A stretch of DNA of 54,776 nucleotides, from positions 1-54,776 of the forward strand of contig CAKKRO010000170.1 in assembly GCA_919902625.1 (NCBI GenBank). Reading direction: 5' to 3'. Positions 45,555 through 54,563 of the stretch are shown here, one piece after another. The notes beneath the pieces were generated by a model that saw nothing but the letters and a program-made list of their open reading frames with translations, was not told where the DNA came from and ran no database searches. Source of the stretch: Nitrosomonadaceae bacterium (lineage in GTDB: Bacteria; Pseudomonadota; Gammaproteobacteria; Burkholderiales; Nitrosomonadaceae). A program made the translations under genes and the position numbers. Within the stretch, counting starts at the first letter, position 1. Each line of letters starts with the position of its first letter.

Positions 45555-46991
45555 TCAAACGAATTGAGACAAATCAAGAGCGATTGGTGTGCCCACTATA
45601 GATGCGATTTCATTGGTATTGAGTTCGTTCAGGGCTGCGAAAGCAAACAAATCCCCTTGTGTCGCGAATGTCTTGCCCGGACCGATGAGCGCATTGAATG
45701 CATCCACATCAGCCTGTGATGGGGTAGTGCCAACAACAGTCTGGAATAAGTGTGTAATCAAGACCTCATTTGAAACACCCGGTGCATAGGTGTTGATCAT
45801 CTCCTGGGCTAAAGTCGCCAGATTTTTCCCATCCATTCCTTCCTTAACCCACTCACTGAGCAGACTGGCAGAAGGCGCTGCATTGAATGCAGCCTCCAAT
45901 AAGGCATAAATATTATAGGTTGCATCACCCACATTGGTATTGAACGCGAACAGATCATTATCAAACAATCCAAATTCTATATCGACAAGACTGTCTTTTC
46001 CATCAGTACCTGAAATCGTATTGTCGGTAAACAATTTGCTGAAATCATAAGTAGAAAAATTCCCGCTGAAGATAGCCGCATCAAATCCATCACCGCCATC
46101 CAAAACATCATCGCCCTTGCCACCAAATACATTATCGTTACCGCCGCCCAGATCAAAGAATTCATTAAAATCGAAACCTTGAACCAAGGGATCATCCGAT
46201 TCAGAACCTTTAGTATCCAGCGCCAACCCTGATCCGGAAAATGCTACGGCATGCAAATCCCCAATGAAAAGTCCCGAGTCGTAAATCTGATCCCCTGTAT
46301 CTGAAATGGCAACCTTGATCTTATTGACACCCACGTTTACCGGTGCAATAACCGTCAGCAAATTGGAGATGCCATCATATTCAAGAGATACAGTGCCGCC
46401 TGCATTATCCCTGAAATTTCCGGCCGCCAAATTAGCGCTTAGAATACTCAGCGGCTGATCAGCCCGGTTATTGAACAATGCATAGTTGACACCATTGATA
46501 TACACACCGGCAATATCGACAAAGCTGCTATCTTTAAACTCAGGAAATTCATCGGATCCAAAGACAAGATTAAATTTGACACTGGTTAAAGCCGGATCAC
46601 TGACGGTAAAACTGAACTCAAGCACAGTGGCATCCTCAACATCACCCGCCGCTGAAAAAGCACCATGAACCGTTGTATTCAGATCGGAATCCGTCTCAGA
46701 AGGCGTCAGCGATACGCCATAGCTGCCGGCGGTATTGGTTACCGGAGGATCTCCATCGCCTGAGGTAAGAAAAAGACCGGAGCCGATTCCAAGACCCGGA
46801 ATAGTGCCGTCATAGAAAGCAATGGATGAAGTGCTCGTTGTTGTACCACCTGAAGAAAAATCGGAGCTGGTTCCATATTTCAGCGTGATAGAACCCGCGC
46901 TGATTGTGACGCCTGATGCTGCCGATAACAAGGCTGAAGCCAAGCTTGAGGTCGTATGTGTTGGTGGATTGTATAAAGTAAAAGCTGACAT
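45555..46991 (-). CDS. Secreted/surface protein: choice-of-anchor L-like domain, RTX Ca-binding repeats and DUF4214-like C-terminus
   Basis: LFLTSG, DATVLEFSF, VFGSDEFPEF, EYDG and IKVAISDTGDQIYDSGLFI. GGGND/GGKGDD/GGDGFD nonapeptides. No N-terminal signal peptide. Confidence 0.72.
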   Translation of the reverse strand: MSAFTLYNPPTHTTSSLASALLSAASGVTISAGSITLKYGTSSDFSSGGTTTSTSSIAFYDGTIPGLGIGSGLFLTSGDGDPPVTNTAGSYGVSLTPSETDSDLNTTVHGAFSAAGDVEDATVLEFSFTVSDPALTSVKFNLVFGSDEFPEFKDSSFVDIAGVYINGVNYALFNNRADQPLSILSANLAAGNFRDNAGGTVSLEYDGISNLLTVIAPVNVGVNKIKVAISDTGDQIYDSGLFIGDLHAVAFSGSGLALDTKGSESDDPLVQGFDFNEFFDLGGGNDNVFGGKGDDVLDGGDGFDAAIFSGNFSTYDFSKLFTDNTISGTDGKDSLVDIEFGLFDNDLFAFNTNVGDATYNIYALLEAAFNAAPSASLLSEWVKEGMDGKNLATLAQEMINTYAPGVSNEVLITHLFQTVVGTTPSQADVDAFNALIGPGKTFATQGDLFAFAALNELNTNEIASIVGTPIALDLSQFV

Positions 46992-49564: not shown

Positions 49565-49598
49565 GAATTTTCCTTTTTGTGTGTGATGCTTGTTTCAG

Positions 49599-49668
49599 GC
49601 GCGCCACGAACGTAATCAACACACTGCCGTCCGTTCTGAGCTTGTCGAAAGGCTTAATCAGCGCCTCC
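49599..49668 (-). repeat. Partial inverted copy of MITE family A
   Basis: GCGCGCCACGAACGTAATCAAC...CCGTCCGTTCTGAGCTTGTCGAAAGGCTTAATCAGCGCCTCC aligns with the reverse complement of positions 1-70 and is followed by TTAA. Confidence 0.72.
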
Positions 49669-50189
49669 TTAACCAAATGTCACGCCAGAACCTGAAGATT
49701 TCACTATAGCGCATTCATTCCCAAGCTGAAAGTGTATATATCGGAATCTCATAAATTCAGGGGCTCACATTAAAATTAACCACTTGCTTCGTACAATTTC
49801 CAGGCACTACTGTCTTATCCCGCAGTTTAGTTTTACCGCAAAGTCTCTGAACGAAAAATCAAAGCAAAGGAACAAGTCTCGATTGCTCGCATTCTTCAAA
49901 TTCATTTGATCACGCTAAAATAAAATCTAAATCCCGCAGAGTAATCGAGTCTGAACATCCCGCTAGAATTTTCAAGTATTTTTGTTACTACCTAATCGAA
50001 TTTCATAGACACAATTCTGCTTAAGCATTCTGAATATGAAACGTTAAACTCCATATTTGAAAGCACATCTCAGATATAGAAACTGATATTCTTCATAGAA
50101 TCCACCAATTAACTTTATATTTTAATAAATCTGGTCGACGATAATCTTACATTTTCTTATCATGTTGATTTATAGATTGGATATTTATA

Positions 50190-52412
50190 ATGATTACCGA
50201 ATTCAAAAAAATTGATTCTCTCTCGCCGTCTGACTTTGAATTTTTTGTCCGCGATGTGTTTGTTGCCGCTGGCTGGAGTGATGCCATCATTACAAAAATC
50301 GGACAAGAATTTCAGCACGGTGACGGCGGTGTTGATATTTTTGCCTATAAAAATAAACGCAAATTTGCTATCGAAGTTAAACAAAGAACAGCGGGAACAA
50401 CAGTTGATGTTAAAGCCTTAAATCAGTTAGTCACGGGTGCAAAACTCACTAATGTCGTCAATATGATTTTAGTGACCAATTCGTATTTCACCTCTGAGGT
50501 GAAAGTACGAGCGTTAAGACTTGGAGTCGAGCTACTTGATCGTGACGGTTTACAGAACTTGTGGATTGAAAAGCATTCTGAAATCGGACGGCAAATCCAG
50601 CCCAGAACATACCAAGAAACCGTTATTCAAGACAGCTTGACGCGCTTTAACGCAGGGCAGATTCGTTTGTTAATCGAAATGGCAACAGGGTTGGGGAAAA
50701 CCTACACCGTTGCCCATTTGTTAAAGCAGATATTGCAACAGGGCAAAGTTAAGCGTGTGCTGTTCTTGGCGCATCAGGTCGAAATACTATTGCAATCGGT
50801 TACCGCCTTCAAAAACGTTTTGGGTATTGGCACTTACTCGTTTTCGGCCTGTTTTGGTGGGGCTGACCCAGAGCAAACCGATTTTGTGTTTGGAAGTTTC
50901 GATACGCTATTTAGCAAAATCTCCACGCTGGAAAAAGAAACTTTTGACGTGATAGTAGTTGATGAAGCTCATCACACCCCAGCCAGAACTTATGCCACAG
51001 TCGTCGAGCATTTTCATCCAAAATTATTGATAGGCCTGACCGCAACGCCATTTCGTGAGGATAACAAAGACGTACTAGCATTTTTTGGTGGTGCAGCAGG
51101 GCATGTGGGCAAGTATGATTTAGCATGGGCATTGCGCCATAACAAACTGGCATTTCCAAAGTATTTGGTTTTGCTCGATGACTTGGATCAATCGCGTATA
51201 GACCAACTGAATCATGGCATGTCGATTAGCGATTTAGACCAACGACTTTTTCTGCATAAAAAAGATGAAGAGGTTGTCCGCATCATAGAAAAAACTGTAC
51301 ACGACAAACAAATCCCCAATCTCAAGGGTATTGTTTTTTGTCGCAGCATCCAACACATAACTTATCTGATCCAGTTTTTCCCGCCGGGCAGCGCGACTTT
51401 TGTGCATTCTCAAATGAGTGATTCACAACGCTGGCAAAACATCCGCGATTTTCGTGAAGGAAATTATCGTTATATTCTGGTGCGAGATTTATTCAACGAA
51501 GGTATTGATATTCCAGAAACCAATCTGCTGGTTTTTATGCGCTACACGGGATCACATACGATATGGTTGCAACAACTAGGCCGGGGGCTACGCAAAACAC
51601 CCAACAAAGATTACGTTCATGTATTGGATTTTGTTGGTTCATTGGAGCGTCTAAACGAAGTGCATCAACTCAGCAAAAGCGTAAAGCACATTCCCATTGA
51701 AAAAGAAAATTGGGAGCCGCGCGATAAAAAAGAAACCGTGCATAACTCTTCGTTGGAAGTGAGCTATAGCCAATCTGCCGCGCAAGTTTTGCAACTTATA
51801 GAAGAGTTGCAATATCGATTGAAATCACGAATGCAGGTAATTGAGGTGCTACGAAGATACTACGAGGAAAACAATCGTATCCCCGAATTGAATGAGATAG
51901 AGAGCGCATTGATTGATGTTACCGCTGACCAAATCGCTACACATTTTGATTCGTATTTTGGCTATTTGGAATCAGCATTAACTGGTCAATATGATCAAGG
52001 GGAATTTCGTGCCTTATGCTTGGATTACGCGCGACATTTTTATCAACAAGATCGCATCTGCCCCAGCTATCGAGCGATTAGCTTTGCCAAGCAGCATAAC
52101 GGCTTGCTTGCCTGCACCGAGGCTGAAATTAAATTTTTGTTGGGCGACGAAAGAAAGTTGGAAAGTCTTTTATCCCAAAATACCATTCACCACGATCAAC
52201 AAGCCGCATCCAAACTTGCCGATACAATGCTGACCATTAACGCACCGCTTGCTGAAATCAATGAAGAATCATTACTCATTGATAAATATGTCAACATTGT
52301 TAAAACGCGACAAGATTTATTGAGCCTTTCTCCTGAAGAGCGGGCAGAAATTAAACGTATATTTAATTCAGAATTTCGTTTTCTCAGTTGTTTGCAAAAA
52401 ACAGCAAAGTAA
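50190..52412 (+). CDS. Mrr-like PD-(D/E)xK nuclease fused to an SF2 (ResIII/DEAH) helicase; putative defence effector
   Basis: N-terminal LSPSDFE...GDGGVDI...EVKQR...LVTNSYFT...ELLD (Mrr_cat-like). Helicase motifs PRTYQ, MATGLGKT, DEAHH, TATP, FNEGIDIP and QQLGRGLR. Confidence 0.88.
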   Translation: MITEFKKIDSLSPSDFEFFVRDVFVAAGWSDAIITKIGQEFQHGDGGVDIFAYKNKRKFAIEVKQRTAGTTVDVKALNQLVTGAKLTNVVNMILVTNSYFTSEVKVRALRLGVELLDRDGLQNLWIEKHSEIGRQIQPRTYQETVIQDSLTRFNAGQIRLLIEMATGLGKTYTVAHLLKQILQQGKVKRVLFLAHQVEILLQSVTAFKNVLGIGTYSFSACFGGADPEQTDFVFGSFDTLFSKISTLEKETFDVIVVDEAHHTPARTYATVVEHFHPKLLIGLTATPFREDNKDVLAFFGGAAGHVGKYDLAWALRHNKLAFPKYLVLLDDLDQSRIDQLNHGMSISDLDQRLFLHKKDEEVVRIIEKTVHDKQIPNLKGIVFCRSIQHITYLIQFFPPGSATFVHSQMSDSQRWQNIRDFREGNYRYILVRDLFNEGIDIPETNLLVFMRYTGSHTIWLQQLGRGLRKTPNKDYVHVLDFVGSLERLNEVHQLSKSVKHIPIEKENWEPRDKKETVHNSSLEVSYSQSAAQVLQLIEELQYRLKSRMQVIEVLRRYYEENNRIPELNEIESALIDVTADQIATHFDSYFGYLESALTGQYDQGEFRALCLDYARHFYQQDRICPSYRAISFAKQHNGLLACTEAEIKFLLGDERKLESLLSQNTIHHDQQAASKLADTMLTINAPLAEINEESLLIDKYVNIVKTRQDLLSLSPEERAEIKRIFNSEFRFLSCLQKTAK

Positions 52413-52427
52413 TTTAGATCAACGCAA

Positions 52428-54563
52428 ATGAATGATGATCCCGAAGTAGATATTTCAGAATATACCGAAGTGCTTCTGTCCAGTCTCATTCTGCCAGATC
52501 ATTACGTAAAACTGATTAAGCGAATGAACAGTGCTTTCAACTACTCAGGATATGCAGGCGCTTCTTTTACGGTAGAAACAGTGGGGAATATTTTGCAACT
52601 TGCACCGCATCAAGTTGCAAAATATCCGGGGGTCGGGAAAAAATACGTTGATACATTGATTGCGTTTAAAAAAGAATTGCCATCGTTTCTGAACATCACA
52701 AAACAAAAGGCAGCGATTATAGAATTGCCCCCGTTAATTACGCTTTTACCAACACAACTAGAAACACCAATAGCACAGTTGGCGTTTCCAGCACAATATC
52801 AAAAGCTCATAAAAAGAATTTCAGTGGTAGCAGTCCACGTAGTCACGGTTCAAGACCTCATTAACCTCGACCCAACTAGCTTTGCAGAATTACCTACTGT
52901 AGGTAAGCTCTATGTTCAGAATTTGATTGAGCTGAAAAAACAATTACCTGACCTGTTGCGGGCGCAAGCGAAAAAATTCGAATCATTCAACTCAATTGAA
53001 TTGAATGAGATAGACAATATCCTCATTGAAGATATTGAAAGGTATTTATGGACATTAGATGAAAGGAAAATAGACATTGCGCTTTCTCGCTGGGGATTTA
53101 ATCACAAACATGAGACCCTCCAAGAAGTGGCCAACCGATATGACATCGAAAGGGAGCGAATACGCCAAATCGAAAAGCCTATTAATACCCAATTGGCACT
53201 GCATTTGACAATACAGCCTAAAGCTTTATGGGCAAATATCCGTGCAAATATGGCCGAAGATTTAACAATGTTGTTGCCTAACTTAGCCAAATGTTTTGCT
53301 ACAGATAAACTATTCTACGCCTTTATTGAATTATGTTGCCAAGTTGAAGCAGGCAGCATTAGCAAGATATTCCTTACCAAAATTCGTTCTGAAATTATCG
53401 ACTTGCTGTTTTGCTCTACTCCTTCCCCTGTTGCACAAGAAATTATCATCAATGAACTGATGTCGAATTACGGATACGACAAGGCATCGGCAATACACGG
53501 CATTAAGCAACTCGAGAAATCCAAGAACATTAAGGTAACCGAACAAGGCATTTATCCAATGAAACTTGCTAGAGCCGAGGCCGTGGCTCATATCTTAGCT
53601 TCTCATCCCGAAGGTTTGCCTTGGAAAGATATTGCCAAAATAGTCAATGCAAAGGGATGCTCATCAACACAAATGGATGAGACAAGATCAACTCATGGGT
53701 TCAATGATTCCGAATATATTTATCTATGTGCAAAGGGGACATACCGAAATCTACTCTTTCTTAACCTTGAACAGTTTGACATCCTTGAAATCATGCAACA
53801 TCTGATTGATTATTTACAACAGAAACAAATAACTGCTTCGCATTTGCACGATTATTACTATCAAACAAAAGGTCAACGCTGCGAAATAGAATACTTTACC
53901 TTGCGTCATCTTGTCAGAACGTATGGCGAAGAGTACGGAATCTACTTTGAGGGTAAATCAAATGTGGATAGTGTAAGCCTTGATCCTGATTCAAGCCATA
54001 TCACCCAAGCCGATGTCATTATCAAAGTGCTTAATGAATCCAAAGTAGCCATGACCAAGCAAGAAATAGCTGAGCGCTTAAAGAGCAAAAGCGTGGGACA
54101 TGCCAGTTTCTACCTAAACAATTTGAGAGAAGAAGGCAAGGTAGTACGCGTTGATAAAATGGTCTACACCACACCTGAAAAAGCCTTCAGCAATATCGAC
54201 ACCAATGCAGTCATGCAGGTTATACGGGAGATTTTAAACGTAAAGAATGTCATCGTTGAGGCAGACGTATTTCGGGAATACGTCAATATGGAACTGAATT
54301 TAAGCTACTCAAAATACATCTATGCCGCCCTACTCGACACCCAGTTAAAAGAATTGGGATGGTATCGCCATAACATGTTATTCAGCAAAAGCCCGATACC
54401 ATACAAAAACTTGTTGGATATGTGTAAACAATTATGTAATCCGAAGTTGCCCAATGACGAGAACGCTAAAATTCTTCAACAAGCAGTGTGGTTGAGTGAT
54501 GCAGTAACCACAACGGTAATTCAACAGTGGAGACGGCATTTAATGACACATGTACCAGATTGA
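52428..54563 (+). CDS. Multi-domain protein: two RNAP alpha-CTD-like repeats, sigma70 region-4-like HTH and winged helices
   Basis: Repeats aa ~13-85 and ~110-174 (TVxD/NxxxL...PGVGKK / PTVGKL). aa ~207-256 LDERKIDIALSRWG...ETLQEVANRYDIERERIRQIEK resembles sigma70 r4. Later wHTH-like segments. It starts 15 bp after the helicase stop. Confidence 0.8.
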   Translation: MNDDPEVDISEYTEVLLSSLILPDHYVKLIKRMNSAFNYSGYAGASFTVETVGNILQLAPHQVAKYPGVGKKYVDTLIAFKKELPSFLNITKQKAAIIELPPLITLLPTQLETPIAQLAFPAQYQKLIKRISVVAVHVVTVQDLINLDPTSFAELPTVGKLYVQNLIELKKQLPDLLRAQAKKFESFNSIELNEIDNILIEDIERYLWTLDERKIDIALSRWGFNHKHETLQEVANRYDIERERIRQIEKPINTQLALHLTIQPKALWANIRANMAEDLTMLLPNLAKCFATDKLFYAFIELCCQVEAGSISKIFLTKIRSEIIDLLFCSTPSPVAQEIIINELMSNYGYDKASAIHGIKQLEKSKNIKVTEQGIYPMKLARAEAVAHILASHPEGLPWKDIAKIVNAKGCSSTQMDETRSTHGFNDSEYIYLCAKGTYRNLLFLNLEQFDILEIMQHLIDYLQQKQITASHLHDYYYQTKGQRCEIEYFTLRHLVRTYGEEYGIYFEGKSNVDSVSLDPDSSHITQADVIIKVLNESKVAMTKQEIAERLKSKSVGHASFYLNNLREEGKVVRVDKMVYTTPEKAFSNIDTNAVMQVIREILNVKNVIVEADVFREYVNMELNLSYSKYIYAALLDTQLKELGWYRHNMLFSKSPIPYKNLLDMCKQLCNPKLPNDENAKILQQAVWLSDAVTTTVIQQWRRHLMTHVPD

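Follow-up and report, generated by a model that had tools for sequence, protein, structure and literature searches.

A compact candidate defence system pairing a SauUSI-like nuclease-motor with a protein resembling RNA polymerase parts

The window analysed here is an entire contig (C170; CAKKRO010000170.1 of assembly GCA_919902625.1) of 54,776 nucleotides from a Nitrosomonadaceae bacterium. Close to its end lie two co-oriented genes, here called gene 1 and gene 2, which apparently form a compact and unnamed candidate defence system. Gene 1 encodes a nuclease fused to a motor like that of the restriction enzyme SauUSI, and gene 2 encodes a protein resembling promoter-reading modules of RNA polymerase, followed by a predicted winged-helix array (Table 1). 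A defence role for the pair is likely and, as judged from homologous loci, the pair is a conserved, mobile and co-inherited two-gene unit of rare and patchy occurrence. An earlier note on this DNA had described two co-oriented open reading frames (ORFs) 15 bp apart, separated from cysK by about 620 bp; the coordinates were confirmed, with 625 bp to the start (49564) of the divergent cysK. The AT-rich composition reported in the same note is real but modest, as the pair has a GC content of 41.0% against a genome mean of 46.0%, and 30 of 474 tiles of 4.4 kb were equally low. A promoter scan of the leader gave three matches against 2.2 expected, which is chance level, and no terminal repeats or target-site duplication were evident around the unit.

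Table 1. Features of the two-gene unit (window positions)
Feature	Position	Strand	Remarks
AT-rich intergenic leader	49565..50189	.	36.6% GC
Gene 1	50190..52412	+	740 aa; Mrr-type PD-(D/E)xK nuclease, SauUSI-like superfamily 2 (SF2, DEAH) translocase, helical C-terminal region
Mrr_cat nuclease domain	50211..50561	+	E17, D49, E62-x-K64-Q65; Pfam E 1.2e-16
SF2 ATPase	50595..51593	+	Walker A K170, DEAH 258-261, motif VI Q461-R468
Three small helical units	51825..52403	+	replace the remaining coupler and the SRA reader of SauUSI
Gene 2	52428..54563	+	711 aa; two alphaCTD-like repeats, sigma70 region 4, helical linker, predicted winged-helix array
AlphaCTD-like helix-hairpin-helix (HhH) repeat 1	52467..52694	+	His at the Arg265 position
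AlphaCTD-like HhH repeat 2	52758..52958	+	Gln at the Arg265 position
Sigma70 region 4-like helix-turn-helix (HTH)	53013..53204	+	intact recognition helix RERIRQ
About five alpha/beta winged-helix-like units	53379..54392	+	AlphaFold secondary structure

Gene 1 had been read as a nuclease-helicase, and this was borne out by Pfam matches to Mrr_cat (residues 8-124), ResIII (136-289) and Helicase_C (370-468). The residues of the nuclease (E17, D49, E62 and K64) and of the motor (K170, the DEAH box and QQxxRxxR) were invariant in 58 of 58 homologues. SauUSI was the nearest solved structure by profile (Protein Data Bank (PDB) entry 7CLG, E 4e-49, residues 131-597 of gene 1 against 216-667 of SauUSI) and also the top Foldseek match to the gene-1 model, for which the per-residue confidence (pLDDT) was 71 and the predicted template-modelling score (pTM) 0.41. 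SauUSI consists of a PLD nuclease, an ATPase (221-617), a coupler (618-805) and an SRA reader (806-953) (PMC7913695; here and below, background from the literature refers to excerpts of the papers cited). As the gene-1 match ends at residue 667, the motor and the first coupler subdomain are kept and the SRA is absent; no SRA-type Pfam match was found in gene 1, and its modelled C-terminus was helical. The first of the C-terminal helical units aligned to the first coupler subdomain of SauUSI, and weakly to HNH_repeat. This helical C-terminus was the least conserved part of gene 1 (55-69% vs 84-86%). Both genes are under purifying selection, as judged from ratios of non-synonymous to synonymous substitution rates (dN/dS) of 0.04-0.18 in all of their domains (5-6 pairs, which are not independent).

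In the structure model of gene 2 (mean pLDDT 80, pTM 0.53), a pair of four-helix repeats precedes a sigma4-like HTH, after which come about five alpha/beta units; no recognised catalytic domain was found in the protein. Domains like the C-terminal domain of the polymerase alpha subunit (alphaCTD) and like sigma70 region 4 (sigma4) had already been noted. The latter assignment stood, with a Sigma70_r4 Pfam match over residues 210-250 that passed the cut-off (E 3e-6) and with helices S1-S4 present. The alphaCTD-like repeats were also upheld, but are diverged, having 22-24% identity to E. coli alphaCTD and, in Pfam, only a sub-cut-off match to HHH_5. For the window's repeats, the assignment to alphaCTD is indirect, being based on this low identity and on RNA_pol_A_CTD matches in 17 of 65 gene-2 homologues. 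The repeat profile was itself seeded with RpoA, and its resemblance to RpoA does not count as independent evidence. The HhH glycine was kept in 466 of 483 family repeats.

The C-terminal 450 residues of gene 2, absent from the earlier note, are a predicted winged-helix array. The unit at residues 525-588 matched the SelB winged helix (Z 10.5, root-mean-square deviation 1.5, 63 residues aligned); the VIA structure-match list was filled by this unit, and the other winged-helix units were assigned from secondary structure only. Foldseek with the whole of gene 2 gave nothing at E<=0.001. A HARE-HTH match at residues 383-419 was below the cut-off (E 0.0045), with an Atlas lead at 0.85 only, all leads of the Atlas search being under 0.9; among 65 gene-2 homologues, HARE-HTH was matched in 24 at E<=0.05 (best 4.7e-5). 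In a wide family alignment, five columns were invariant (Y489, R493, F507, G509 and D514), all of them in the third winged-helix unit.

The co-occurrence of the two genes in other genomes, a check put forward in the earlier note, was confirmed. Twenty-nine loci were examined, six of which start inside gene 2, and in 20 of the 23 informative loci gene 1 was directly upstream of gene 2 (this count includes L036, the twin of the window, and some near-duplicates). The remaining three were L004, where the pair is interrupted, and L038 (5'-truncated gene 2) and L005 (IS1 upstream), both without gene 1. At L004 (798-5830), type I M/S genes have taken the place of the central part of the pair, of which the 5' end of gene 1 and the 3' end of gene 2 remain. 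In one draw of 301 genomes of the family of G402, gene 2 was present in 17, gene 1 in 19 and both in 16, against about one expected if independent, a figure inflated by kinship among the genomes. The three genomes with gene 1 only comprised two truncated copies and one divergent copy at a contig end. The sole case of gene 2 only (L097:6032-9891) was a divergent 989-aa relative, which overlaps an unknown gene (298 aa) downstream of it; the region has IS elements on its flanks and a plasmid-like appearance. In addition, 31 contig sizes were common to the two homologue tables (120 and 104 rows), an indirect sign of co-location. No third gene or methyltransferase was conserved with the pair across the scanned loci, in line with the earlier remark that no methyltransferase or specificity subunit is adjacent; type I M/S genes were seen only inside the broken copy at L004 and as an opposite-strand fragment at L093.

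The possibility that subunits of a named system lie beyond the end of the window was not borne out. The metagenome contig L036 is identical to the pair locus across 4328 bp and then continues for 10 kb, in which the next ORFs of at least 130 aa are an opposite-strand halogenase/LodA/tyrosinase cluster. Because of this continuation, a third subunit hidden by the contig end was ruled out. The cluster itself (L036:5028-12872, outside the window and matching contig C70 of G000) lies downstream of the pair and is made up of tyrosinase genes and of genes resembling those for FAD halogenases and LodA.

An orthologous pair was found in E. coli, with 59% (gene 1) and 31% (gene 2) identity and a spacing of 1 bp, beside ydeT and insertion sequence (IS) scars. 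Among 5426 E. coli genomes, gene 2 was matched in 83 (73 over 80% of its length) and gene 1 in 105 (82 over 80% of its length), the share of E. coli genomes with the orthologous pair being about 1.4%. The intact E. coli version is WP_124072017.1 or WP_001530084.1 with WP_000410983.1. Outside G000, full-length gene 2 was found in 0 of 400 genomes of the phylum, where the other matches were to sigma4 only, in 0 of 399 genomes of the class (one further genome had no score), and in 0 of 100 related genomes, 60 of them of the same genus. Gene 2 was present in three plasmid records, and none was found in viral contigs. The unit lies at many unrelated chromosomal sites and is often broken by IS elements or frameshifts (G402, G404, G868, G883, L047, L059 and NCTC122). 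In E. coli NCTC122 (L104:5001-9020; NZ_LT906474.1), an IS3-family element sits in gene 1 and gene 2 is cut after about 620 bp; the pair is likewise broken in WG5 records. NCTC122 is E. coli C, a phage-permissive indicator strain. At greater distance, the P0230 cluster (a distant gene 2) and P0220 (a distant gene 1) have the same longest contig of 33,324 bp, and the P0230 cluster has a Phycisphaerae record, hinting that the pair may reach beyond Proteobacteria.

A profile search with the gene-2 module gave 222 representatives at E<=1e-30, of which 150 were listed. Fifteen of these 150 were at least 940 aa long, each with essentially the whole module, and 11 of the 15 join it to a PADLOC-matched protein: PglX (four), DndH (two), GmrSD/HEC-05 (one), HEPN-like PDC-M34B (three) and an IetA-like AAA ATPase (one, a generic match). 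The other four comprised one with DUF6339 and three that were unassigned, and two shorter proteins added a fourth HEPN-like fusion and a HerA fusion. The fusions are predicted from gene calls, and three of them have further full-length cluster members. RxxxxH was present in three of the four HEPN fusions. All four PglX parts (P0285, P0294, P0298 and P0329), fused behind the module, were without the NPPY motif IV, and these are possibly dead-methyltransferase readers or decoys. In P0290, the whole module (1325-2007) separates the nuclease region of DndH from HerA. In P0312, an unassigned N-terminal domain (1-230) is fused to the module; it contains a YKPFWLWAI stretch reminiscent of the sulfur-binding winged helix of phosphorothioate-dependent nucleases.

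Neighbouring genes were compared with PADLOC (E<=1e-15) for 92 ORFs, made up of 80 of the 120 listed and 12 others, with distal ORFs and IS genes omitted. Matches were obtained for 23 of the 92 neighbouring ORFs and for 2 of 76 control ORFs, both of the latter housekeeping-like; counting the 40 omitted ORFs as misses, the proportion was 23/132. The matches were to Septu, SauUSI-like enzymes, ThsB, HEC-01, AbiH and type I restriction-modification, and one was housekeeping RecD. At L001 (2026-15833), the pair lies among defence genes (AbiH and PDC-S64 matches) bounded by two transposase-like ORFs. As to a location in defence islands, which the earlier note had proposed to check, 12 of the 25 scanned loci had a PADLOC-matched neighbour and 13 had none; the window's own copy had none either.

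The 13 loci without such a neighbour might indicate that the pair has no defence role, gene 2 being instead a transcription regulator or a DNA-repair or maintenance partner of a RadD-like helicase. RadD was indeed the second-best structural relative of gene 1 (E 3e-30), and gene 2 is labelled by annotators as a sigma factor-like HTH protein. Nevertheless, the patchy spread (0/60 in the same genus), the many unrelated insertion sites, the frequent inactivation by IS elements and frameshifts, the Mrr nuclease and the fusion of the module to defence proteins all make this explanation very unlikely.

Building on the domain anatomy, the intact catalytic motifs, the purifying selection, the co-inheritance, the fusions and the lack of a conserved methyltransferase, we infer that the pair may be a SauUSI-like restriction enzyme in which gene 2 serves as a separate DNA target-recognition subunit, a reading to which we give about an even chance. 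Gene 2 would bind invading DNA and load the nuclease-motor encoded by gene 1; powered by ATP, this enzyme would move along the DNA and cleave it, as SauUSI does. The lost SRA reader would be replaced in trans by gene 2, acting via the helical C-terminus of gene 1. Within gene 2, the alphaCTD-like HhH repeats and the sigma4 helix would grip DNA, and the conserved winged helices would supply specificity. As no methyltransferase protects the host, the recognised signal would most likely be a modification of the invader's DNA or some other non-self feature in it, much as type IV restriction works. Several observations weigh against such a restriction enzyme. No modification-reader fold was found in gene 2, where HARE-HTH remained below the cut-off and only one winged-helix unit was structurally confirmed; gene 2 occurs without gene 1 in L097 (the divergent relative), L005 and L038; fewer than half of the scanned loci, and not that of the window, have a PADLOC-matched neighbour; and the fusions to HEPN RNases and to methyltransferases with an eroded motif fit a sensor or a bait equally well. 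If correct, the candidate would be a new variant of ATP-dependent restriction, with an E. coli version open to standard coliphage testing.

The earlier note had proposed gene 2 as a decoy for phage transcription-takeover factors. The T4 proteins Alt and ModA modify Arg265 of alpha (PMC2988021), and MotA contacts helix S5 of sigma70 (F610, L611) together with basic residues of S4, the helix that reads the -35 box (PMC6755090). In the window's repeats Arg265 is replaced, and Arg was found at this position in just 41 of the 483 family repeats, 12 near-canonical copies included. In 77 diverse gene-2 homologues, no counterpart of helix S5 was found, and the columns mapped by eye to K593, R596, K597 and R599 held K or R in a minority. 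The decoy proposal is therefore weakened for Alt/ModA and for MotA. As for AsiA, which would bind to sigma region 4, the helices S1-S4 are retained in gene 2. In contrast, the sigma4 recognition helix TRERIRQ was kept in about 70 of the 77 (R 70, E 70, R 69, R 70, Q 72). A DNA-scanning loader, close to the promoter-scanning loader offered in the same note as an alternative, fits better than the T4 decoy, as the DNA-reading helix is kept and both Arg265 and the MotA surface are missing.

A bait role is weakened for the window's copy, though it may hold elsewhere in the family, as some relatives carry near-canonical alphaCTDs. Gene 2 would then mimic polymerase surfaces (alphaCTD and sigma4) or the DNA-binding targets of phage DNA mimics; once a phage protein had bound or modified it, gene 1 would be set free to degrade DNA, as an abortive infection. 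The alphaCTD repeats changed fastest (44-49% vs 62-84%) and varied from one to four in number. Twelve close homologues carry in the first slot a near-canonical alphaCTD with 51-58% identity to that of E. coli and with R265, G296, K298 and S299; these copies were equally like the RpoA of their own genome and that of E. coli, and were scattered on the core tree, with eight changes of which at least four were forced (a quick tree only). Similar near-canonical copies were seen in three distant proteins. The fusions to HEPN domains and to PglX without NPPY also count for a bait, as does the targeting of BREX by the DNA mimic Ocr (PMC12839542). On the other hand, R265 is missing from the window's repeats, there is neither a MotA-binding helix nor the basic patch, repeat 2 showed no positive selection (dN/dS 0.18), and the invariant residues are all in the winged-helix array, none in the polymerase-like parts. 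We consider the bait unlikely.

In a further explanation, gene 2 would read the UP element (alphaCTD repeats) and the -35 box (sigma4) on incoming, polymerase-free DNA, guiding gene 1 to cleave close to early phage promoters of high strength. Both polymerase modules that read promoters do stand side by side in gene 2, the conserved helix corresponds to S4, which recognises the -35 box (PMC6755090), and T4 early promoters are excellent sites for the host polymerase (PMC2988021). However, host promoters would be targeted as well and the pair encodes no protective mark, most repeats have lost R265, the residue for the UP element, and the helix may be conserved for structural reasons. Such a promoter reader therefore seems quite improbable.

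These two explanations can be combined. Gene 2 would be a portable immune sensor made from promoter-reading parts of the polymerase, which detects phage transcription take-over either as bait for DNA mimics or for proteins that target the polymerase, or as promoter reader. It would be refreshed by recapturing canonical alphaCTDs and, like an integrated decoy, be plugged into many effectors: the nuclease-motor, HEPN RNases, GmrSD, DndH and dead PglX. This combination is conceivable but doubtful. Versions of the module, of about 700 aa and polymerase-derived in appearance, occur in BREX, Dnd, GmrSD and HEPN proteins. Knowing its target would explain the recurrence of alphaCTD and sigma4 in PglW, MzaA and DndH, and the module might turn out to be a new kind of modification reader or to sense transcription hijacking.

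Compared with known systems, the restriction enzyme favoured above is closest to SauUSI, an ATP-dependent type IV restriction endonuclease (PDB 7CLG; PMC7913695). Both have a nuclease at the N-terminus, an ATPase of one and the same SF2 subfamily and the first part of the helical coupler, and neither has a cognate methyltransferase. The candidate differs from SauUSI in having an Mrr-type PD-(D/E)xK rather than a PLD (HKD) nuclease, in lacking the SRA and in having a conserved second gene downstream. CglI and NgoAVII likewise distribute ATP-dependent restriction over two subunits, one with a target-recognition domain, but there the nuclease carries the B3 reader and the helicase is separate (PMC7913695), whereas in the present pair the nuclease is fused to the motor and it is the predicted reader that stands apart. 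Type I restriction-modification was rejected, as no HsdM or HsdS was linked to the motor-nuclease in the scanned loci and the match of gene 1 to EcoAI-type HsdR was below the cut-off (132 bits vs 550).

PglW of BREX type 2 resembles gene 2 in having an alphaCTD-like domain followed by winged helices (PMC12839542), and gave a weak PADLOC match over gene-2 residues 109-250. However, PglW has a NERD nuclease, kinases and an inactive STAND within a multi-gene BREX locus, none of which is in the pair; no BREX gene was among the scanned neighbours, and the similarity was limited to this 140-aa stretch. MzaA is a defence protein with a sigma70 region 4-like domain, matching gene 2 over residues 198-252 only (32.7 bits vs a cut-off of 800), without similarity outside sigma4, and the other genes of the five-gene Mza operon (MzaB-E) were in none of the scanned loci. 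In the long DndH variant, a sigma-factor-related HTH is inserted between the restriction endonuclease and HerA/FtsK domains (PMC10853773). This is likely the same insert as the gene-2 module, because P0290 has the whole module at that place, but the excerpted main text of that paper describes the HTH inside DndH, and not a portable module of about 700 aa or a stand-alone helicase-nuclease partner.

In agreement with the earlier view that the pair is no recognised system, neither protein had a full-length PADLOC or NCBIfam match, those of gene 1 being confined to its helicase or nuclease part. No published description of the pair was found in the literature searched, which was mostly open; the module may be mentioned in the supplements of PMC12839542 or, in connection with HARE-HTH, by Aravind and Iyer 2012. 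The E. coli protein accessions were absent from the supplements of PMC13092281 and PMC13069673.

Elsewhere in the window, positions 45555-46991 on the reverse strand encode a Ser/Thr-rich protein of 478 aa, likely secreted or surface-associated, with a weak match to RTX calcium-binding repeats (E 5e-4, below the cut-off).

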